Source of the DNA: a virus
Reading direction: 5' to 3' (one strand)
Virus record (IMG/VR): IMGVR_UViG_3300037247_001890
Span: 32,001 to 96,000 of that record
DNA length: 64,000 bases
Of this stretch, positions 3,505 through 29,895 are shown piece by piece (position 1 is the first letter of the stretch; the number at the start of each line of letters is the position of its first letter). The position numbers and the translations under genes are program-made. The notes below the pieces were generated by a model that worked only from the letters and a program-made list of their open reading frames with translations, was not told the origin of the DNA and did not search any database.

Positions 3505-4089
3505 ATGAATAAAGTTTGTACTAAATGTGGAAAGAGTAACCCTTTAGAAGATTATTATAAGCATTCATTAGCAAAAGATGGTAGAGCATCAAAATGTAAA
3601 AGTTGCCATAAATTAGCACAAGCTAAATATGCTAAATCTGATAAAGGTAGATTAGTAAATGTCAAAGCACATGTTAAATATGATAAAACTGAAAAAGGTA
3701 AAGCAACAACAGCTAAATATTTTAAAACTGATAAAGGTAAATTAGCAATAGCTAAATATAATAAAACCAGTAGAGGTAAACTAACAAAAGCTAGGACAAA
3801 TCACAATAGAAGAATTAATATAGCAAACACAAAAAATAATTTTACAATCAAAGAAAGCAAATTAATCCTATTCCTGCAAAACTATCAATGTGCAAATCCG
3901 AATTGCGAGTGTGGTAGATTCTTTGATATGGTAGAACCCACACTTGACCATATTGTTCCTGTAGAATTAAGCGGGGATTTAATTAAAGAAAACGTACAAT
4001 ATCTATGTCAGTCGTGCAACAGTTCAAAAGGCATAAAATACATAGATTATAGATCAGAAACTCACAAACAAATGATAGAAAGGATATAA
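3505..4089 (+). CDS. HNH homing endonuclease with N-terminal Zn ribbon and KYxKSDKG repeats
   Basis: CxxC pairs; DHIVP...ENVQYLCQSCNSSK HNH core; paralogue of 53294-53914. Confidence 0.85.
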   Translation: MNKVCTKCGKSNPLEDYYKHSLAKDGRASKCKSCHKLAQAKYAKSDKGRLVNVKAHVKYDKTEKGKATTAKYFKTDKGKLAIAKYNKTSRGKLTKARTNHNRRINIANTKNNFTIKESKLILFLQNYQCANPNCECGRFFDMVEPTLDHIVPVELSGDLIKENVQYLCQSCNSSKGIKYIDYRSETHKQMIERI

Positions 4090-4250: not shown

Positions 4251-4593
4251 GGGGCTGAATGATTCGACGGATATTCAAAGTTAATATACTTCACTCCGGC
4301 ACTATAGTAGTATGGCCGTAAAGCAAACTGCAAGCTAATTAATAATTGGCAATAGTTATAGACTAGCTGCATAAGCAGCTCGACTCGCATATCAGCCACG
4401 ATATGCAAGAGTCGTTAATGCAGGCTCGGCAATCTGATTTGGCCAATCAGTGCGCCTAAAACTAGGCCAGGCGAGCATGCAGGCCTTATTCGTTTGCAAA
4501 GCATGCCAACGCTAGTGATACCTAAACGAATAAGAGTGTAAAAAAGAATATTAATTAGATTGTTCGGACCCGGTTTCGATACCGGCAGCTCCA
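4251..4593 (+). ncRNA. ssrA: tmRNA, tag peptide (A)GNSYRLAA*
   Basis: GGGGCTG...TTCGAC 5' end; T-arm CCGGTTTCGATACCGG; 3' CAGCTCCA; tag ORF 4348-4374 ending LAA-stop. Confidence 0.95.
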
Positions 4594-4597
4594 CTAG

Positions 4598-4626
4598 AGG
4601 CAGGGTGAAGAACTCACCCTGCTTTT
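4598..4626 (+). terminator. intrinsic terminator
   Basis: GGCAGGGTGA/TCACCCTGCT hairpin followed by T-run. Confidence 0.7.
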
Positions 4627-4653
4627 GTTGTATTTTTATCGAAGGAGAAAATT

Positions 4654-5265
4654 ATGAATATTAAACTATTGTTTTTTATCGTGGCAAGCCTAGTCTTATC
4701 TTCGTGTCACGTTCGTTATGTTTACGTCTATACTGACGAACCCGTCGATGAAGTTTACGTTTATGATGTTAGCTATGTTTACGCTAGTCTCTGGTATGAC
4801 GATTTTTACTGGAGATATAATACTAATTACTATTATACATTTGGTTTATTTTATCACACGCCAAGGTACTCAGGGTATTCTTACTACCATAATTATAAAC
4901 CATACTACAGACATCACCGCAAACCAAAATTTAAAAGACACTGGTTTGATAGACGCCAACATAATATTGTCAAAAAACATCGTAGTAGACGTTCAACAAT
5001 GGATAGGCCCAACATTGAGTATAGAAAAAAATCTAAACTAGGACTAAAATACGAACAGCGTGTCCCAACAAAATTTAAAAATCGACGCAAGCTCAATAGG
5101 GGGACCAAAAGCAGAGACCAAAAGGTGACTAAGCAGAAAAGGAATACCTCAAAAAAAAGAACTATTACTCGTCAAAAACAACGAAACAATAGTTCAAAAA
5201 AGTCAACTCGAAGTTCAAAACATTCCAAAAAAGTAAAACGTTCCACGAAAAAACCAAAAAAATAA
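4654..5265 (+). CDS. lipoprotein, Tyr-rich with very basic tail
   Basis: Lipobox LSSC; SD AAGGAG. Confidence 0.7.
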   Translation: MNIKLLFFIVASLVLSSCHVRYVYVYTDEPVDEVYVYDVSYVYASLWYDDFYWRYNTNYYYTFGLFYHTPRYSGYSYYHNYKPYYRHHRKPKFKRHWFDRRQHNIVKKHRSRRSTMDRPNIEYRKKSKLGLKYEQRVPTKFKNRRKLNRGTKSRDQKVTKQKRNTSKKRTITRQKQRNNSSKKSTRSSKHSKKVKRSTKKPKK

Positions 5266-5270
5266 AAATA

Positions 5271-5299
5271 TTGCAATTTTAATAAAAAAGTGTTATATT
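5271..5299 (+). promoter_or_regulatory. sigma70-like promoter TTGCAA-17-TATATT with extended -10
   Basis: TGn-TATATT; lies at the head of the tRNA cluster. Confidence 0.75.
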
Positions 5300-5305
5300 A
5301 GAGCT

Positions 5306-5474
5306 ATGAAACGTACTACTATAAATATGTGGTCCTCATTATGTGATGGACAAGTACATCCAAGATTTAATGGTGGGAGTCCCATTATGTAATAAGCGGT
5401 TTCATTTCTCGCTTTCATTTTCTCTTTTTCTCTATAGAGGGAACCGCCATTAAAAAGCAGTTTCCTCTTTTTTT
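5306..5474 (+). promoter_or_regulatory. leader-peptide attenuator (28-aa uORF 5306-5392, antiterminator and terminator)
   Basis: uORF; terminator stem 5436-5468 plus T-run; alternative pairings 5366-5376/5444-5454 and 5396-5403/5440-5447. Confidence 0.65.
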
Positions 5475-5580
5475 ATTTAGTATGTAAATCACAGATTTGC
5501 ATACTGATCTTTGACAGTTAGGAGTTTGTGGGGCATCGCGATAGTGACGAGCTAGCGTTTACGCCTTATACATTCAGATT

Positions 5581-5716
5581 TGGAAGGATAGTTGTGACGT
5601 GGTAGTCAGATATAGGCAAGATACTCTCTGCTGGATACGCGTTCTGGTGGAAGGGAACAAAAGCTGAATCCCGATGCAGGGGCGTTGCATGATACTAAAT
5701 GCCGACTATCTTTCCA
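5581..5716 (+). ncRNA. orphan structured RNA
   Basis: GC-rich, non-coding, closed by TGGAAGGATAGTTG/CGACTATCTTTCCA. Confidence 0.45.
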
Positions 5717-5722
5717 TAATAC

Positions 5723-5797
5723 TCACGAGTAACTCAGCCTGGCCAGAGTTTCCGGCCGTTAACCGGACAGTCGAAGGTTCGAATCCTTCCTCGTGAG
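5723..5797 (+). tRNA. tRNA-Asn(GTT), C33
   Basis: Cloverleaf; loop CC-GTT-AA. Confidence 0.92.
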
Positions 5798-5818
5798 CAA
5801 TAAATAGGAGAAATAAAT

Positions 5819-6355
5819 ATGAAATTATTTTATATATTTATTTTATCATTATTTATTGGATGCGTCTTAGAACCAGATGTAAAAACTGTATATAAAGACA
5901 GAATAGTAAATGTTGGCATCATTATAGGAGATGTGCCATTAGAATATTCTTATACTAATATGTGGGAAGCTCAATCTTATTGGAAGGATGACTATGGTAT
6001 GTTACTTTGGGTAGTGGCACAAAATTTATCAGATACGAATTGGTATGGTCATCCTGAACTGCGAATTTATACTACTGATGAACCGATGGACGAAGATAGT
6101 TATTTAACTGAATATGATTTAATATCAACAGGGATTGGTGTACTTACTACCGAAATTGGCTACAATTATGTGCCAGTAGATACTGCTGATTTTATTCCGA
6201 GTCCAGGATTCAGGCATTCCCTGACTTTTGCAAGAATCGATTATAGTGCTTTAAAACAATATTATTATGGTTTATGGAGATTTGTACCTGCCAATACCCC
6301 TACTCTATCAAAGATTGCCCCATTAAGTTATGATCAAATAAAATGGCAAGAATAA
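5819..6355 (+). CDS. lipoprotein
   Basis: Signal peptide ending FIGC; SD AGGAG. Confidence 0.7.
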   Translation: MKLFYIFILSLFIGCVLEPDVKTVYKDRIVNVGIIIGDVPLEYSYTNMWEAQSYWKDDYGMLLWVVAQNLSDTNWYGHPELRIYTTDEPMDEDSYLTEYDLISTGIGVLTTEIGYNYVPVDTADFIPSPGFRHSLTFARIDYSALKQYYYGLWRFVPANTPTLSKIAPLSYDQIKWQE

Positions 6356-6363
6356 TAACCCTA

Positions 6364-6847
6364 TAAATAAGAAAGCACGCTGCAGTCGGCTAGACTGCGT
6401 AACCCGTTGTAACTTATTTATTATGGGTAGAAAAGCACGTTGTGACCGTACTCTAGGAAATGTAATCCGTTGTAATCTATCCATCCTACAGACAGAAAGC
6501 ACGCTGTGATCCAATAACAATCCATTGGATTGTTAATAACCGGGTTCACCCGGGTGATTGCGTAACCCGTTGTAACTGTTTGTAGAAAATAGTAGAGAAG
6601 CACGCTGTAACTCGAGGTCTGTTAGGGCCGCGAGGTCCATAAGGGCCGCGAGGTCCATAGGGGCCGAGTTGGGTTATGTAACCCGTTGTAATCTACCAGG
6701 GTGGAAAGCACGTTGTAATGCCCTTTAGAAGACATACGCGTAATCCGTGTACTCCACCCATTTAAGTTGTGCGGGAAAGCTCGTTATGATCTACGCGAAT
6801 GATTGTACATTCTAGAACATGTAATCCGAGTGACTACCGCAATTAAA
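6364..6847 (+). repeat. six-unit structured RNA array
   Basis: Six copies of RAAGCWCGYT...GTAAYCCG(T)WGT, each with its own closing stem and a variable insert. Confidence 0.85.
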
Positions 6848-7078
6848 GTAAGGAGATTTAATATAGCATCAATAATGTGGGAAGCTGGTGGATTTGGAAA
6901 ACCAAAAATTCGCAGATTTCTGCAAGAGTGCAAATATGAAAATTTTATAACAGAATGGTCAGAGACAAAAATTAGCATTTTCACAAGCACTTTTGAGATT
7001 AATGGAGAAGAAGAAAAATTAGAATTTATGAGTGAATATTTGAGGAAGCAATGCAATCCAGAAAACCAGGCAAAATAG
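6803..7078 (+). CDS. hypothetical protein (start uncertain, probably after 6850)
   Basis: ORF track; SD AAGGAG near 6850. Confidence 0.45.
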   Translation: MYILEHVIRVTTAIKVRRFNIASIMWEAGGFGKPKIRRFLQECKYENFITEWSETKISIFTSTFEINGEEEKLEFMSEYLRKQCNPENQAK

Positions 7079-7500
7079 TAAGGAATAATCTCTATATACA
7101 CAGGGATTATCTTGACACAACAGAAATTCCGGAATATCTTTACACTACTCGATATGATCGAATGATAGGAAAAAATATGCCAGGAGTAGATATTTTAAAA
7201 CATGATCGAACTCACGGTACAGTATCTTTAATTAAATGCTTTGACTTCGATGGAGAAGATGAACCAATCATACAAATGGTATCGACAAGACTAAAAGAAA
7301 TAAATTACACTCGGCCAACAGGTCCAATATATCATCATAAATGGATGATGGTAGGAGATGACTATATGGGATTCAACATTGACGCCAGTAAGCAGCGTAG
7401 TGAACGAATTAAGCAAATAATGCGGGAAAATCCCGGCATTGCACCATATCTAATAGGTAATCAAGTCTATTGGAAAGCTAGAGTTTTACCCTTACTGTAA
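7051..7500 (+). CDS. hypothetical phage protein
   Basis: 149 aa containing IYHHKWMMVGDDY. Confidence 0.7.
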   Translation: MQSRKPGKIVRNNLYIHRDYLDTTEIPEYLYTTRYDRMIGKNMPGVDILKHDRTHGTVSLIKCFDFDGEDEPIIQMVSTRLKEINYTRPTGPIYHHKWMMVGDDYMGFNIDASKQRSERIKQIMRENPGIAPYLIGNQVYWKARVLPLL

Positions 7501-7504
7501 TAAC

Positions 7505-7580
7505 TGGCCGGTGGTGAAGCTTGGTCAAACACAGCGGGCCTTGGACCCGTTATTCGTAGGTTCAAATCCTACCCGGCTAA
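7505..7580 (+). tRNA. tRNA-Gln(TTG), C33
   Basis: Cloverleaf; loop CC-TTG-GA. Confidence 0.92.
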
Positions 7581-7623
7581 CGCAAGACCTAATAAAATTA
7601 ACCAAGAAACAGAGGAAAGAAAG

Positions 7624-8013
7624 ATGAAAAGGATTTATTATTTATACGATGAGGGCAATCAGCCTATCGTCACTGTGGGTATTTTTAAAGATGAAAAAGG
7701 ATTTTCTTTTGCACGCACACTGTCTATTTATGGAGAAGGCGAAACCCTCCCACTGAATAAAGGACAAGCACGTAATATCGTAGATTCTCGTTTTGAGAAT
7801 GCTGCAAGTATTCTGGATAGATCAACATATACCAATGAAATCTATCCTCGACGTGTAAAAAATTTATTTTGTCGTTTAATATCTATAAAAAACAACAATA
7901 GATGCGTCAATGATCTCTTTGGGAATGCTGAAAAATCACTCCTTAAGATTGATTTAAACGCCGAACCAACTGATTTCGAAAAATATCTGCTTAGGATTGA
8001 TGCAAAAAAGTAA
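7624..8013 (+). CDS. hypothetical protein
   Basis: ORF with SD GAGG. Confidence 0.65.
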   Translation: MKRIYYLYDEGNQPIVTVGIFKDEKGFSFARTLSIYGEGETLPLNKGQARNIVDSRFENAASILDRSTYTNEIYPRRVKNLFCRLISIKNNNRCVNDLFGNAEKSLLKIDLNAEPTDFEKYLLRIDAKK

Positions 8014-8057
8014 TCAAGTAGCCTTGTGGTGAAAATTACAGGGCTACTTATATTCTT

Positions 8058-8890: not shown

Positions 8891-9118
8891 ATGAAAGTTA
8901 GAATATTACCATCGGTGTTAGGCACTACTTGGAGGGGCGATTTTGATTCGTTTGGACTTCCAAAACGAATACTCAACACATCAAACAAATACTGGAAACA
9001 TATAGGATTGTATGATTTAACCATAGAAAAACTTGCCGAATTGGCGAACAGCAGTGACAAGAAAAAAGGTTTCAAGACCTACAGAGATTTTAAACAATCT
9101 GGGTTTACTAAAAAATAA
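8891..9118 (+). CDS. small hypothetical protein abutting tRNA
   Basis: ATG 3 nt after the discriminator. Confidence 0.55.
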   Translation: MKVRILPSVLGTTWRGDFDSFGLPKRILNTSNKYWKHIGLYDLTIEKLAELANSSDKKKGFKTYRDFKQSGFTKK

Positions 9119-9458
9119 ATCAATATTGGATTATGGCTGTGGAAAATCCATAGACTATATTCACATAGCAGATATGGATCGATTTGATCCTTATTTCTAT
9201 CCGGAAATAAAAAATAAAAAATATGAAGTTATTCTTTGTCATTATGTTATAAATGTAGTTAGCAAAGAAGAACAAAAACAAATAATAGAACATATTAAGA
9301 GCCTTCTGGCACCAGGAGGAAAAGCTTACTTCACAGTAAGGAGAGACATAAAAGAAGACATCCATTATAAAGACTATTCTCAAAGAGTTGTATATCTACC
9401 TTTTAAAACAATAAAAAAACACGCGGACTTTGAAATTTATGAATGGAGTGAGAGATGA
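9033..9458 (+). CDS. class I SAM-dependent methyltransferase
   Basis: ILDYGCG motif I; LCHYVINVV; LAPGG; start uncertain. Confidence 0.8.
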   Translation: MPNWRTAVTRKKVSRPTEILNNLGLLKNKSILDYGCGKSIDYIHIADMDRFDPYFYPEIKNKKYEVILCHYVINVVSKEEQKQIIEHIKSLLAPGGKAYFTVRRDIKEDIHYKDYSQRVVYLPFKTIKKHADFEIYEWSER

Positions 9459-17805: not shown

Positions 17806-18081
17806 ATGCTAGATGGTAATTATTATTTTGAATGTATTTGTGGCTGTGATGAGCACACTATAAGATTTACACTAGATAAAGAAGAAAAAGAAATTTACAC
17901 TTCGATATTCTTGGCTAGCCATCGGAACTTTTTCATACGAATTTGGCTGGGAATCAAGTATATTTTCGGTGGAAAAAGTCGGTATGGGCAATTTGGTAAT
18001 TGGTCATTAAATGTGCATGATGCCAATAGATTGGAAGACATGTTAAATATGCTAAAGGAGTTTAAAGATGGGACCTCATAA
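17806..18081 (+). CDS. hypothetical phage protein
   Basis: FECICGCDEH; SD AAGGA. Confidence 0.65.
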   Translation: MLDGNYYFECICGCDEHTIRFTLDKEEKEIYTSIFLASHRNFFIRIWLGIKYIFGGKSRYGQFGNWSLNVHDANRLEDMLNMLKEFKDGTS

Positions 18082-19174
18082 AATATATGCAGAATATGCA
18101 GAAGGCGCTGCTTTAGATCAATTTTATGAAGCAATGAAACATGATACCGTTGTGCAAGGTGCTTTAATGCCTGACGCGCACAAAGGTTATTCATTGCCAA
18201 TAGGGGCTGTGATAGCAATGAAGGATGTTATATGGCCTGCCGCAGTAGGATACGATATTGGATGCGGTATGTGTGCTATGCCTACTTCATTTGAGAAAGC
18301 CCATGTGGAAGCACAAAAAGATCTTATTTTTGATAGGATATATGAACAAATTCCTGTTGGATTTAACTGGAACAAAAAGCGTGTTAATTTTCATGTGACA
18401 GGTGAACTAGAAAAAGAACCAATTACTCCCCATTTTAAAAAAATCTATAATGAAAGAGGAGTATTACAAATCGGTTCTCTTGGTGGAGGTAATCACTTCA
18501 TCGAAATAGGTTATGATGAAACAGATAAGGTCTGGATTATAATTCATTCCGGATCCAGAAATCTTGGACATAATATTGCCACTTATTACATGAAACTTGC
18601 ATCTGGTGATGGCAAAGCACGAGAAGGTTATTATGTATTGGATTTTCAAGGTATAGATGGCGCGAATTATGTGACAGATCTTAATTTTGCATTAGAATTT
18701 GCCTTGTTAAATCGTGGTGAAATAATAAAAAGAGTAGAAAAAATATTAAGTAAAGTTGCTAAAGGCCATGGTAACTGGGATGGGTTAATCAATCGCAATC
18801 ATAATCATGCTGAATTGAAAGATGGGCTATGGATACATCGCAAAGGTGCAACACATGCCGAAAAAGGTATGGAGGGAGTTATTCCTGGAAATATGCGTGA
18901 TGGTTCTTTTATTGTGAAAGGTAAAGGAGATCCTGAATCATTAAATTCCTCGGCACATGGTGCTGGTCGAGTATTAGGACGTCGTGCCGCTAAAGAAACC
19001 TTAAAGATGGAAGATTTTAAAAAATCCATGAAGGGAATTAAGGCAAAAGTAGGCACAGATACTATAGATGAATCTCCAGGTGCATATAAAAATATTTTTG
19101 ATGTGATGGAACAACAGAAAGATTTAGTCGAAGTCATGCATCATGTTAAACCTATTATTAATATAAAAGGATAA
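18068..19174 (+). CDS. rtcB: RtcB 3'-5' RNA ligase
   Basis: MPDAHKG, GYDIGCG, GSLGGGNHFIE, HSGSR, HN, HRKGAT, PGNM, SAHGAGR, DESP. Confidence 0.97.
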   Translation: MGPHKIYAEYAEGAALDQFYEAMKHDTVVQGALMPDAHKGYSLPIGAVIAMKDVIWPAAVGYDIGCGMCAMPTSFEKAHVEAQKDLIFDRIYEQIPVGFNWNKKRVNFHVTGELEKEPITPHFKKIYNERGVLQIGSLGGGNHFIEIGYDETDKVWIIIHSGSRNLGHNIATYYMKLASGDGKAREGYYVLDFQGIDGANYVTDLNFALEFALLNRGEIIKRVEKILSKVAKGHGNWDGLINRNHNHAELKDGLWIHRKGATHAEKGMEGVIPGNMRDGSFIVKGKGDPESLNSSAHGAGRVLGRRAAKETLKMEDFKKSMKGIKAKVGTDTIDESPGAYKNIFDVMEQQKDLVEVMHHVKPIINIKG

Positions 19175-21527: not shown

Positions 21528-22229
21528 ATGTTTAATAAATATGAAAAAACATATAGAATACAGACTCCTAATTTGAAAATATCCGGAAAGATGAACATGT
21601 CTAAAAAAGATGTTCAACGGTTATTGACAGGGAAAGTTACTATTGAAGAAAAGATTGACGGAGCTAATGTAGCTATTATAGGCATGGCATCAAACGTATC
21701 TTATTTTCGTCCGCCACGGCCATTTAGATTACAAAAGCGTGGATCATTGATTGATTTTTCTGAACATGAACAATATAATCGATTTAAGGCATGGTCAATG
21801 AAACAATGGAATAATTTGTCTAAGATAGAATACGGAATTTATGTATATGGTGAATTTATGTGGGCTACCCATCATATCTTTTATGATAATTTAACTGATT
21901 GGTTTGTATGTTTTGATATATGGGATGGTCGGAAATTTTACGACAGGCGAGAAAAAGAAAAATATTGTAATGATTTAAACTTCCAAATAATTCCATTGGT
22001 ATATGAAGGTTATATTGACGATATTATACACTTAGAAAGTTTTGTGCATGGCAAATCAGAATATAGTACAGATCATGATCGGGAAGGTATTGTAGTAAAA
22101 AATTACAGAAAACAAATGCGAGGAAAAATAGTAGTACCAGAATTTGTTAAAGAATTAAATGAAGATGGCACTCATTGGATGACTCGCTGGGATCCACGAA
22201 AAGTAAATAAATTAAAAAAGGAAATCTGA
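21528..22229 (+). CDS. ATP-dependent RNA ligase family protein
   Basis: Motif I EEKIDGAN; YGEF; FDIW; EGIVVK; K-motif RGKIV. Confidence 0.85.
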   Translation: MFNKYEKTYRIQTPNLKISGKMNMSKKDVQRLLTGKVTIEEKIDGANVAIIGMASNVSYFRPPRPFRLQKRGSLIDFSEHEQYNRFKAWSMKQWNNLSKIEYGIYVYGEFMWATHHIFYDNLTDWFVCFDIWDGRKFYDRREKEKYCNDLNFQIIPLVYEGYIDDIIHLESFVHGKSEYSTDHDREGIVVKNYRKQMRGKIVVPEFVKELNEDGTHWMTRWDPRKVNKLKKEI

Positions 22230-25299: not shown

Positions 25300-26682
25300 A
25301 TGACTTACGCAAAAACTGATAAAGACGCTTTACAATATGAAAGTTCTGGCAGTCGTTTGGTAGATTTTTTCTCTAAAGCAGCTGTACAAAGAATGCAGGT
25401 ATTGGCAGGTGAAGATGATTTAATACCTCTTTATAAAAGAGCTAAACAAGAGGATCACATATTAGCGACGAAGACAGTATTTTGGTTGCGTGATCCTAGA
25501 GCAGGAGCTGGAGAAAGAGCAGCAGGAATAAAACTACTTAAGCATTTGGCTGATACACAACCAGGCTTTGTATCCGAAAATATGCTACAAATAGCTGAAT
25601 ATGGCAGATGGAAAGATCTGATTGAATTATCGTCAACTCATAAAAACGATGTAATTATTACCTGGGCAAAGGCAATAAAAGAAGGTGATCGCCTGGCATC
25701 TAAATGGGCACCACGCAAGGGAGATTTGGCTCGATCAATTCGAGACGAGTTAGGGATAACCAATGCAGAGTATCGTCATACATTAAAGAAAAATTCTGAA
25801 ACTGTGGAACAAGCAATGTGTTCTAAAGACTGGGGTTCTATTGATTATACGAAAGTGCCATCCGTGGCAATGCGTAAATATAGTCGCGCATTTCGTAAAA
25901 ATGATACCCAGCGTTTTGATGATTTTCTTGGCGATTCGACAAAAAAAATAAATACTGCAGTAAATTATCCTCATGAGGTTGTAAGACACATACGAACAGA
26001 CGTTGATGTTAGTGATAAAATGTGGACAAACTTACCGGAGTTCACACAACCTGGTCAGTATTTTTTGACTGTGGTTGACGTATCAGGATCAATGACTTGT
26101 ACAGCTATCGATAAGGCAGGAAGCCAGCCAATACATGTAGCCCTAGCTTTAGGGTTATACCTTGCAGAAAGAAACGTGGGACCTTTTGCTAATAAAGTGA
26201 TCACCTTTTCTGATATGCCACAGTGGGTTGAAATAGACCCAAAGGAAAAGTTACATCAGAAATTCGTAGATTTGTGCAATATAGACTGGGGTGGCACAAC
26301 CAATATCGAACGAACTTATGAGCTAATTCTGAAATTAGCAAACGCAGCCTCAGTACCACAAGATAAAATGCCATCAACACTGATTATCTTATCGGACATG
26401 CAATTTGATTCATGTACGAGCGGTATGACGCATTTGGATAACATACAAAATAAATATAAAGAATATGGGTATGAAATTCCAAAGCTAGTATTTTGGAACC
26501 TGTCAGGCAGCTACACGGGTAGTCCAATAGATAACAGGGATAATGTAGCCCTGATATCTGGTTTTAGTCCTACTATTTTGAAGGCCGTTCTTCAAAATAA
26601 GGTCATAGACCCTGTCGGCGTTCTAAAAGATGCAGTAGATGGTTATAACATTAATTTTGACCACTTCGATCCCGAAGCATAG
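25300..26682 (+). CDS. DUF2828-family Ro60/TROVE-like protein with C-terminal vWA domain
   Basis: LRDPRAGAGER; YGRWKDL; KWAPR; MIDAS DVSGSM; WGGTTN; ILSDMQFD; VFWNL; ISGFSP. Confidence 0.88.
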   Translation: MTYAKTDKDALQYESSGSRLVDFFSKAAVQRMQVLAGEDDLIPLYKRAKQEDHILATKTVFWLRDPRAGAGERAAGIKLLKHLADTQPGFVSENMLQIAEYGRWKDLIELSSTHKNDVIITWAKAIKEGDRLASKWAPRKGDLARSIRDELGITNAEYRHTLKKNSETVEQAMCSKDWGSIDYTKVPSVAMRKYSRAFRKNDTQRFDDFLGDSTKKINTAVNYPHEVVRHIRTDVDVSDKMWTNLPEFTQPGQYFLTVVDVSGSMTCTAIDKAGSQPIHVALALGLYLAERNVGPFANKVITFSDMPQWVEIDPKEKLHQKFVDLCNIDWGGTTNIERTYELILKLANAASVPQDKMPSTLIILSDMQFDSCTSGMTHLDNIQNKYKEYGYEIPKLVFWNLSGSYTGSPIDNRDNVALISGFSPTILKAVLQNKVIDPVGVLKDAVDGYNINFDHFDPEA

Positions 26683-26724
26683 GGCAAGAAGATATTACGC
26701 GACATACGTCACGTTGAATAAAAC

Positions 26725-26753
26725 TTGCATCCTGGTTTAAAATTCGGTATATT
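26725..26753 (+). promoter_or_regulatory. sigma70-like promoter TTGCAT-17-TATATT
   Basis: Directly upstream of a non-coding structured region. Confidence 0.75.
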
Positions 26754-26759
26754 GTGGTA

Positions 26760-27306
26760 CGAGTTTAAACAACTAACAGCACTAACAAAAAAACAGGAAC
26801 AATTGGTCACAGGTTCGAATCCTGTCATCCGCCCATGGTATGAACATGTCACACGGTGGATGTAGCTCAGTGGATAGAGCAATTGTATTTGATCCAAGCA
26901 CAGTTGTCCGCAAGGTTTTAGCTTGGATTTTATAAAAATAAGTTTGAATAGGAACGAAAGAACTCACAGCACCCCAAAATTTGACCTTGAAAATCAAAAA
27001 AAACCAACGTTCTCCGAAAGGTGTTCCTGTTCTAAAAAAAATACACCATACAGCAAACAAATACTGGTTGCTTCTACGCTAAAAGGTGGCGGTGTCCGGA
27101 AGGTTTAAAACTCGGCAGCGTTAGAGGCAGGGTTTCGATACCCAAACAATCAACCCATCAGCACACCATACAAATCAAAGATCAGGGGAGTCGACATGAT
27201 TGGGGTTACCGAAAGGTTTGACGACATGTAGGCTGGACCTGAAGCATAATATCTCCTAAACCGAAGGGCGTTGGCACATTAAGATGTATGTCGGCGTCCT
27301 TTTTTT
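26760..27306 (+). ncRNA. composite Y-RNA-like transcript (4 modules, includes a permuted tRNA)
   Basis: Four stem-CAGCA...stem-CCGNAAGG modules; permuted tRNA 26799-26886; own promoter and terminator. Confidence 0.75.
27265..27306 (+). terminator. intrinsic terminator
   Basis: AAGGGCGTTGGCA/TGTCGGCGTCCTT plus T-run. Confidence 0.75.
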
Positions 27307-28957: not shown

Positions 28958-29335
28958 ATGAATAGAATACAGCCGGAAGAATTGATAAAATTACAAGGAA
29001 TACTTCGTAGAGGAACAATTGTCAAAGTTCATAATCAGAAAGACGATATTTTTCTAGAAGCAACTTTTGATGGATTCGCAGACGCCGAATGTCCATACAG
29101 ATATTGTTTACTCCATCCTAAAAATCCTGGAAAACAAAAAGATGTAAAACCCTGTGATGGTTTTATGAGGTGGATTATAAATGATGAGGAGCAAGAATCT
29201 TGTCCTTATTTAGGTGGATTGGAATTTACAGCAGGTGACATGCAAGTTATTACAGAAATTAAAACAAAAAAGAAAAATCCAGAGACAGGCGGTTATGATG
29301 AAACGTGGCTTATCCCAAGTGATTACCTGAAATGA
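28958..29335 (+). CDS. hypothetical protein
   Basis: Packed operon. Confidence 0.65.
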   Translation: MNRIQPEELIKLQGILRRGTIVKVHNQKDDIFLEATFDGFADAECPYRYCLLHPKNPGKQKDVKPCDGFMRWIINDEEQESCPYLGGLEFTAGDMQVITEIKTKKKNPETGGYDETWLIPSDYLK

Positions 29336-29895
29336 AAATATTAAGAAAAATAAATGTAATAGATATAGAAGCGACATGTTGGGATAATCCTGAAGAGAGG
29401 AAAGACCAACCTAATGAAGCCATAGAAATAGGAATAACTGAGGTTGATCTTTCTAATCTTGAAATAAATAACAGCAAGAGTGTGTACGTAATTCCACGAA
29501 ATAGTTCTATATCAGAATTTTGTACAAAATTAACAGGCATTCCACCAGCATTAATAGCGGGAAGAGGAGTTAGCTTCACTAAAGCTATACGTGTTTTAAA
29601 ACAAACTTTTAGAATACATAACAGGCATTGGATTAGTTGGGGCGACTATGATAAGGACCAATTACAACGTGATTGCGACAGGAATAATTTGGTATATAAT
29701 AAAGTATTCTTCAAAAGACATACCAATTTTAAAACTGTTTTTGCTATGCTATATGGGCTCCCAAAAGAACTGGGCGTAGAAGCGGCATTGACCCATATAG
29801 GTCTGCACTTTGCAGGACAGCTCCATAGCGGAAAAGATGATTCTTTTAATATTGCCCGACTTTATGTCCATACGTTGAAAAAATTTAGGAAATAA
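29332..29895 (+). CDS. DEDDh 3'-5' exonuclease (ERI-1/KapD-like)
   Basis: IDIEATCW; IEIG; FCTKLTGI; SWGDYD; HSGKDD. Confidence 0.9.
   Translation: MKILRKINVIDIEATCWDNPEERKDQPNEAIEIGITEVDLSNLEINNSKSVYVIPRNSSISEFCTKLTGIPPALIAGRGVSFTKAIRVLKQTFRIHNRHWISWGDYDKDQLQRDCDRNNLVYNKVFFKRHTNFKTVFAMLYGLPKELGVEAALTHIGLHFAGQLHSGKDDSFNIARLYVHTLKKFRK

Follow-up and report, generated by a model that had tools for sequence, protein, structure and literature searches.

Among described systems, arrays of protein-binding RNA modules are represented by Y RNAs, sponge RNAs and ToxI-like decoys. The Y RNAs (YrlA/YrlB, bound by Ro60/Rsr) are small RNAs of modular build, whose variable apex rests on a closing stem and a conserved protein-binding element, and they are encoded by phages beside RtcB-type repair genes; the sponges CsrB and RsmZ string together serial hairpins with the same short recognition element, in copy numbers that vary among relatives. 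In ToxI-type systems, tandem RNA repeats are cut into units that each bind one protein, and phages are known to carry and expand such arrays as decoys. Other structured RNAs lie close to phage transfer RNA (tRNA) genes, among them ROOL and GOLLD, which are phage-borne, tRNA-linked ornate RNAs, and species 1 and 2 of T4 (rnaC/rnaD), stable non-tRNAs of unknown function in the phage tRNA cluster that mature from the same precursor. Here we describe an array of six tandem RNA hairpin units inside a tRNA gene cluster of a large uncultured phage, at positions 6364–6841 (+ strand) of a 64,000-nucleotide window that covers bases 32001–96000 of the 169-kilobase (kb) IMG/VR phage record IMGVR_UViG_3300037247_001890 (about 85% complete). 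The repeated module is a small structured RNA family not previously described, each unit of which folds independently into a rod. Its structure, folded strand, conservation, synteny, variation in copy number and exchange of tips can all be followed in the window and in six related contigs.

The module measures 52–111 nucleotides (nt), and the units (30–55% G+C) are packed head to tail with linkers of 0–8 nt. Its outermost closing stem, P1, has 5–10 base pairs (bp) of any sequence and encloses a small purine loop with RAA (R, purine) on the 5' side and AA on the 3' side, enlarged to a 4x5 loop in the last unit. Above this loop stands P2, a 5-bp helix of near-fixed sequence (GCACG with CG(U)UGU) carrying one bulged pyrimidine (U or C) in most units, followed by an asymmetric loop of 2 nt (Y-U; Y, pyrimidine) on the 5' side and 6 nt (G-U-A-A-Y-C) on the 3' side, in which UAA-Y-C is invariant. 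Minimum-energy folds suggest a wobble pair between the loop U and the loop G, which would leave a 1x5 loop. P3 then opens mostly with G-C followed by U-A pairs and leads into a variable apex: that of unit 1 is just 5 nt long, unit 3 has a three-way junction and unit 4 a triplicated mini-hairpin. The conserved nucleotides, about 20 in number, are located in the junctions and one helix, and the variable tips are mostly base-paired; a UAG(A/G)A word recurs in several of them at differing structural positions and is treated as unproven. The initial annotation, made from the sequence alone, had quoted four complementary closing stems and conserved 5' and 3' core halves, all of which can be read in the sequence. 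Its description of variable 'cargo' inserts is right as to the variability of the apex and overstated as to 'cargo' for most tips, only the three-way junction being conserved throughout. The array and its units are as follows, where the core type (C/C or U/U) refers to two loop pyrimidines treated below and scores are those of a covariance model built from the six window units.

6364–6841, + strand: whole array, six tandem RNA hairpin modules (covariance-model matches, fold)
6364–6420, + strand: unit 1; 8-bp P1, short 6-bp P3, 5-nt loop, C/C core type; match 6364–6420, 68.6 bits
6423–6484, + strand: unit 2; 9-bp P1, weak P3, U/U core type; match 6424–6483, 69.3 bits
6486–6585, + strand: unit 3; 10-bp P1, three-way-junction apex; match 6488–6583, 69.0 bits; fold z −4.6
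6592–6697, + strand: unit 4; 5-bp P1, apex with an 18-nt unit in 3.0 copies; match 6589–6699, 55.6 bits
6699–6759, + strand: unit 5; 7-bp P1, no bulged U in P2, U/U core type; match 6700–6758, 34.7 bits with filters off (31.8 bits with a second model); fold z −3.5
6768–6841, + strand: unit 6, the 'last unit' type; P1 6770–6774/6837–6841; match 6768–6841, 67.5 bits

Scores within the array (34.7–69.3 bits) are well set apart from the rest of the 64-kb window, where the best match reaches 13.5 bits (E value 0.32), and the second model, run over the whole 169-kb genome, returned the same six units and none elsewhere. Folding of positions 6355–6860 yields six separate hairpins, and the minimum-energy folds of units 1 and 6 reproduce the full model structure, that of unit 5 its three helices. 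A two-box pattern matched 4 times against an expectation of 0.00 (100 shuffles), and with a wider gap gave 6 forward, 0 reverse and 0 control-pattern matches in the 169-kb genome, which rules out a chance occurrence. All six units proposed at the outset are thus recovered by both model and fold, the last of them extending over about 6768–6841 rather than 6761–6847. Individual apices differ greatly: that of unit 3 is built of two hairpins, of which the second is G+C-rich, conserved and capped by a UUCA loop, and that of unit 4 holds the threefold repeat noted earlier, which Tandem Repeats Finder places at 6613–6666 and measures at 18 nt rather than roughly 20. Unit 6 departs from the others in its larger, purine-rich 4x5 loop and in a P2 without bulge whose middle pair is U-A; the GCUCG/CGAGU swap (A-U to U-A) that the initial annotation took as covariation is readable in the sequence.

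The main support for the structure comes from an alignment of 30 units from seven contigs, the six of the window and 24 from six related contigs. Standard pairs make up 91.4% of its cells, compared with 71.7% in shuffles, and changes on both sides occur in 15 of the 19 pairs. The covariation score of 0.561 (shuffles, 0.243) was reached by none of 500 shuffles, so that the covariation suspected from unit 6 alone proves strong across the family, and sliding the partners against each other lowers pairing to 21–49% and the score to at most 0.121. Most of this signal originates in P1 and P3, both of which vary freely. P2 is different in kind: its pairs C15-G127 and G16-C126 are invariant in 30/30 units, as is the loop UAA-Y-C, and variation is seen at the middle pair (A-U 16, U-A 6, G.U 2, G-C 1) and the outermost one (G.U in 22 of the 30 units, G-C 5, A-U 1). 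The core is therefore sequence-specific, not a generic hairpin. G.U or U.G pairs are present in 12 of the 19 pairs, and the folding energy is −156.1 kcal/mol (z −4.1) for the + strand and −141.5 kcal/mol (z −2.5) for the − strand, a difference of 14.6 kcal/mol, which together identify the + strand as the folded one. Since the array also has the orientation of all flanking tRNAs and genes, RNA is the natural reading.

An unusual form of covariation links two pyrimidines on opposite sides of the asymmetric loop, column 17 (the first loop position on the 5' side) and column 124 (the Y of UAA-Y-C). Both are C in 16 units and both U in 14, with no mixed unit, amounting to the full 1.0 bit of mutual information; the identity also holds in the five L230 units, examined only after the rule was noticed. 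Three-way-junction units are C/C everywhere, L123 excepted, and units lacking the P2 bulge may be of either type, the fifth unit of the window being U/U and the third of L164 C/C. As otherwise similar units differ in type, more than one switch must have occurred. We infer either a symmetric pyrimidine-pyrimidine contact or a joint read-out of both positions by a binding partner. Elsewhere in the loop, the sole change of G120 to A (first loop position on the 3' side, unit 5 of L155) is accompanied by a change of U18 to C, an isosteric swap of the wobble.

Relatives were reached through the gene following the array, a two-unit sequence pattern and model searches. The array was found in seven contigs of one phage clade, always at the same site between tRNA-Asn and tRNA-Gln, with 2, 4, 5 or more, or 6 units.

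Window: 6 units
L155: 6 units
L165: 6 units
L230: at least 5 units; contig begins inside unit 1
L164: 4 units
L166: at least 3 units; contig begins inside a unit
L123 (156-kb phage G001): 2 units

This narrow spread limits the generality of the family. A blastn search with window positions 5000–8000 against 50,697 phage records matched tRNA-Asn and nothing else, and no model match was found in five more distant phage records (four reached via RtcB at 34–35% identity, one via a weak match to the downstream gene product ORF149) or in three contigs of another phage with an ORF149 homologue. Pattern searches brought up candidates that did not stand: more than 116 single-unit loci in IMG/VR, all single, are attributed to chance, the first model giving nothing significant on the first 100 (best E value 0.08); of 35 two-unit loci in metagenomes only L155 and a duplicate of G001 (L134) are real; and none of 55 two-unit loci in bacterial genomes is, the model finding nothing there and those with several hits being CRISPR arrays of Xanthomonadales. 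The pattern of the last unit, searched in IMG/VR, retrieved G001 only.

Comparison within the clade reveals how the array evolves. The window and L155 share 84–94% identity in the flanks and in units 1–3; unit 2 is almost identical between them, and in unit 1 P1 and core are retained while P3 is different yet paired. From the tip of unit 4 through unit 5 to the tip of unit 6 (6611–6820) no blastn similarity to L155 is found, though the cores are kept, and the unit 4 orthologues of L155 and L165 bear short tips unrelated to that of the window. The three-way-junction tip, with its G+C-rich second arm and mostly UUCA loop, is present once or twice in each related array on differing P1 stems, and its position shifts from third unit (window and L155) to first (L165 and L123) or second (L164). 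Because the same tip appears in units with different P1, tips must move between units, and L230 (2–192, + strand) provides direct evidence of such copying in two neighbouring units that carry the same three-way-junction tip of about 60 nt, with one loop difference, on different P1 stems. This movement presumably occurs by recombination through the identical cores. A unit of the last type closes the array in 7/7 contigs, each time with a different tip, and its P2 is GCUCG/CGAGY in six contigs and GCGCG/CGCGC in L123, whose smallest array comprises just a three-way-junction unit and a last unit. To judge from these sequences, the apex is a tolerated and fast-changing position, and selection on an individual element is apparent only for the three-way-junction tip and for the last unit. 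Unit 1 of L123 and unit 4 of L230 are retained with P2 shrunk to its two invariant pairs, and the innermost core, namely these C-G/G-C pairs and the loop, is therefore the essential part.

The RNA family is new, as no database or literature match was found. A comparison of 6364–6841 with the 4227 models of Rfam 15 (including ribozymes, riboswitches, Y RNA, ROOL, GOLLD and tRNA) gave no match at gathering thresholds, nor did positions 6200–7000 give any at E ≤ 10 with permissive filters, in line with the initial annotation, which had recognised no known family. None of the 27 tRNA calls (ARAGORN, RF00005) falls inside the array. The motif is likewise absent from the literature found, a comparison that lies outside the catalogue of 10,006 viral candidate RNAs (PMC10690425).

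The surroundings of the array form an island that combines a near-complete tRNA set and a transfer-messenger RNA (tmRNA) with an RNA-repair toolkit. The window contains 27 tRNA genes and one tmRNA, all on the + strand (ARAGORN, Rfam). Between tRNA-Asn and tRNA-Gln the order is open reading frame (ORF) 178, a 520-nt stretch without a credible gene (6356–6874) that holds the array, ORF67 and ORF149.

3505–4089, + strand: HNH / endonuclease VII-like gene, just upstream of the tmRNA
4251–4596, + strand: tmRNA
5723–5798, + strand: tRNA-Asn, upstream boundary (ARAGORN, Rfam)
5819–6355, + strand: ORF178, lipoprotein-like N-terminus (ORF list)
6875–7078, + strand: ORF67, small gene downstream of the array; Shine-Dalgarno-like AAGGAG at 6850–6855
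7051–7500, + strand: ORF149, member of an unnamed domain family; follows the array in 6/7 contigs
7505–7581, + strand: tRNA-Gln, downstream boundary (tRNA call)
9033–9455: small S-adenosylmethionine methyltransferase
18068–19171: RtcB
21528–22226: RNA ligase
25300–26679: Ro60-like vWA protein (DUF7788/DUF2828)
29332–29892: RNase T-like exonuclease

ORF178 separates tRNA-Asn from the array in the window, L155 and L165 only; it is absent from L123 and L164, where the first unit lies 0–1 nt past tRNA-Asn, and it matches no Pfam, PHROG or PADLOC family. ORF67, with no family match, has homologues after the array in L155, L165 and L230, and it intervenes between array and ORF149 in the window, L165 and L230. 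The homologues start with ATG 7–9 nt past the Shine-Dalgarno-like sequence; in the window this codon is ATA (6863–6865) and the first ATG follows four codons later, at 6875, so that the gene either starts at ATA or is shortened and poorly initiated. ORF149 belongs to a family of 773 clusters (E ≤ 1e-3) that is stand-alone or fused to Methyltransf_23 or DUF5824, with conserved residues that include an invariant K8, E71-P72 and H95 in a Y-H-H-K-W word. Its AlphaFold model reaches a pLDDT of 94.8 with a 66-sequence alignment and 43 with a shallow one. Against the PDB the model returned nothing at E ≤ 1 in Foldseek and a best Z of 2.9 in VIA-align, and the protein has no PDB sequence relative and no Pfam or PADLOC family; the model points to what may be a new fold, perhaps of a nucleic-acid modification enzyme. 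Two observations concern its relatives elsewhere: the P0007 contigs carry an HNH gene on the opposite strand, some 1 kb upstream of their ORF149 homologue, and another lineage with an ORF149 homologue has, by ARAGORN, a tRNA-Asn with the unusual anticodon ATT (L227:1911-1986, L228:764-839, L229:666-741). A scan for promoters and terminators found nothing specific to the array, with site counts near shuffle expectation; the nearest intergenic terminator-like hairpins on the + strand are at 4595–4627 and 8016–8049, with a weaker one at 6174–6188 inside ORF178. It is therefore simplest to assume that the array is transcribed together with tRNA-Asn and tRNA-Gln. An RNA-like region directly behind the Ro60-like gene (26700–27300) differs from the array, containing neither conserved core half and giving no model match.

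Of the roles suggested in the initial annotation, a sponge or decoy is the most economical and is kept as a best guess: we tentatively favour, at somewhat less than even confidence, a multivalent protein-binding or decoy RNA produced from the tRNA operon of an RNA-repair island. The array would be transcribed from the + strand within the tRNA-Asn to tRNA-Gln operon, and its RNA would be freed when the tRNAs are cut out. With the rigid core repeated in every unit, one protein would find a docking site on each of them, and the array as a whole would act as a multivalent scaffold or decoy RNA. A docking site for one protein fits best because a rigid, sequence-specific core is found in 2–6 copies of changing number with a free apex. 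The likeliest target would be a host or phage protein handling tRNA or damaged RNA, for instance a tRNA-directed defence nuclease, because the array sits among replacement tRNAs together with RtcB, an RNA ligase and a Ro60-like protein. Several points weigh against this proposal. That the array is transcribed and set free from a precursor, that it binds protein and what kind of partner it would have are all inferred, and a ribozyme or an RNA-RNA tertiary contact would explain so strongly conserved a core just as well as a protein site. The alignment was fitted to the model and all seven contigs come from one narrow phage clade, many of the 30 units being orthologues or paralogues, so that independent evolutionary events are far fewer than the cell counts. 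Part of the identity at columns 17 and 124 could arise if both positions travel along with a tip when it is exchanged between units. Nor do the flanking genes help, being without known family: for ORF149 in particular, considered as partner or toxin, no evidence of a functional pair was obtained, the protein having no family match, its gene being deleted beside the six-unit array of L155, and its homologues lying in tRNA islands of other phages that lack the array.

Of the alternatives, one that we consider rather unlikely holds that the units are processed, by themselves or by a nuclease, the core being a small self-cleaving ribozyme or a metal-independent endonuclease site that gives unit-length RNAs, with P1 holding the unit ends together and RtcB or the RNA ligase possibly sealing them into nuclease-resistant circular or dumbbell RNAs. 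Some 20 conserved nt spread over junctions and one helix are typical of small ribozymes, the units run head to tail with 0–8 nt linkers and are each closed by their own stem, and RtcB, which joins 2',3'-cyclic phosphate and 5'-OH ends, lies with the RNA ligase 11–15 kb downstream in the same island. This last link is one of neighbourhood only, however, and the Rfam models of self-cleaving ribozymes remain empty even at E ≤ 10; the core has neither pseudoknot nor multi-helix junction, the linkers, as the required cut sites, are not conserved, and the two units with a 2-bp P2 are retained nonetheless. Conservation of both a loop and a helix sequence, as in a loop-receptor pair, would also suit one large composite RNA in which the units pack together, for instance by docking of the GUAA-like loop on the P2 of another unit into a ROOL/GOLLD-like particle; the universal presence of a three-way-junction unit and a last unit, the total size of 200–480 nt and a tRNA neighbourhood resembling that of ROOL and GOLLD point the same way. 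No ROOL or GOLLD match was found, and 2–6 units with a tip order that differs among close relatives fit a fixed architecture poorly, making this possibility quite unlikely. The broader notion of a new catalytic or self-organising class of RNA, be it units that leave the tRNA-operon transcript by self-excision or excision and are sealed by RtcB or the RNA ligase into circular hairpins, or an RNA-only particle, appears quite improbable as well; the C/C-U/U positions would in that case form a symmetric pyrimidine pair of non-Watson-Crick type where catalysis or docking takes place. An element that acts in cis within the tRNA operon, serving as processing 'punctuation', as an exonuclease barrier or as a translational operator for the next gene without acting in trans, is also rather unlikely. 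It would account for the constant location of the array within the tRNA-Asn to tRNA-Gln transcription unit and for a conserved last unit that ends 7–35 nt ahead of the next start codon in 7/7 contigs, but a barrier or punctuation mark needs no invariant loop, no identity at columns 17 and 124 and no 2–6 copies, and the downstream gene varies (ORF67 in four contigs, ORF149 in three).

The remaining readings fare worse. The alternation of conserved and variable segments invites comparison with a clustered regularly interspaced short palindromic repeat (CRISPR) array, the conserved halves serving as handles for an RNA-guided effector or for a host Cas protein (an RNA anti-CRISPR) and the variable part as a guide or stuffer, yet what would be the 'repeat' between variable parts includes P1 strands, which are not conserved and belong to two different units. 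There being no direct repeat, a CRISPR array proper was ruled out, as the initial annotation had already concluded. Its suggestion of a guide scaffold is disfavoured, the variable parts being mostly paired and the six tips giving only chance-level matches to the rest of the phage genome (blastn-short, best E value 0.12). CRISPR arrays of Xanthomonadales-like gammaproteobacteria (L171, L178, L188, L198, L200, L214) have a 36-nt repeat that shares end words with the core halves, starting with an 8-nt word of the 3' half and ending with a 5-nt word of the 5' half. These loci score below 17 bits with the model, their hosts are G+C-rich in contrast to the units, and by our own estimate about 30–55 chance pattern matches are expected in such large collections; the resemblance is rated a coincidence, and a guide or CRISPR-mimic array very unlikely. 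A DNA-level element, in which single-stranded hairpins would serve for recombination, like integron attC sites, or would be repeats of an origin or packaging site, seems least likely of all. The attC sites consist of a stem, an unpaired spacer, another stem bearing an extrahelical base and, at the end, a structure that varies, a layout and size range that the units (52–111 nt) resemble, and tips that move between units would be in keeping with recombination. In attC the outer R''/R' boxes are conserved, whereas here the outer stem is the most variable part and no gene cassettes lie between units; no tyrosine recombinase (PF00589) was found in the 169-kb record, itself about 85% complete, by a search that was positive in 14/14 control genomes, and the array is embedded in, and co-oriented with, a tRNA and gene operon. 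The antiterminator once proposed, like a riboswitch, is disfavoured by the want of an expression platform or terminator, by 2–6 serial copies and by a position between genes of the tRNA operon.

The tRNA clusters and RNA-repair genes of large phages are increasingly seen as counters to host defences that cleave tRNA, and the other content of such islands is poorly known. The present locus contributes to it a well-supported RNA family that Rfam 15 does not contain, unusual for its tandem modules, invariant asymmetric loop, rare identity-type covariation (C/C versus U/U) and exchanged apices. If the core is a protein site, the array would be a compact natural RNA decoy or scaffold of tunable valency, and would lead to the target, which may be a defence nuclease or a repair factor; a catalytic core would instead mean a new ribozyme class. 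The alignment of 30 units and the model offer a concrete and cheap starting point for experiments.

As a system, the array may be set beside several known ones. Archaeal box C/D sRNAs resemble it in combining a terminal stem with a conserved protein site in an internal loop and with inner segments that vary, but the array has no C/D box words and no tandem G.A kink-turn pairs, and its variable segments are paired rather than single-stranded guides. T4 species 1 and 2 are single genes, in contrast to an array of units, and show no sequence similarity to it by blastn. ToxI repeats are near-identical, 34–45 nt long and folded into pseudoknots, with a terminator and a ToxN-family gene behind them. 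The units of the array are longer and differ from one another in P1, P3 and tips; being neither identical nor short, they do not fit a ToxI-like antitoxin. No ToxN-like gene was identified by PADLOC or Pfam in the flanking ORFs, and a PF13958 search of the genome was empty, as it also was in every control genome. Serial hairpins with the same short recognition element and a copy number varying among relatives recall the CsrB/RsmZ sponges, whose element is a GGA word in apical loops bound by a CsrA-like partner, whereas that of the array is an internal-loop and helix core beneath a variable apex, with no CsrA-like partner known. The Rsr contact word of Y RNAs, GNCGAAN0-1G near the 5' end (PMC4201824), occurs in none of the 30 aligned unit cores, and no Rfam Y-RNA match was obtained. 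Y RNAs lie within about 4 kb of the Ro60 gene; the array and the Ro60-like gene share a strand but are about 18.5 kb apart. Like the Y RNAs, the array joins a closing stem and a conserved element to a variable apex, in an island that holds both a Ro60-like gene and RtcB. Taken as a system, its closest counterparts are thus arrays of protein-binding RNA modules, that is, the Y RNAs, the sponge RNAs and the ToxI-like decoys.

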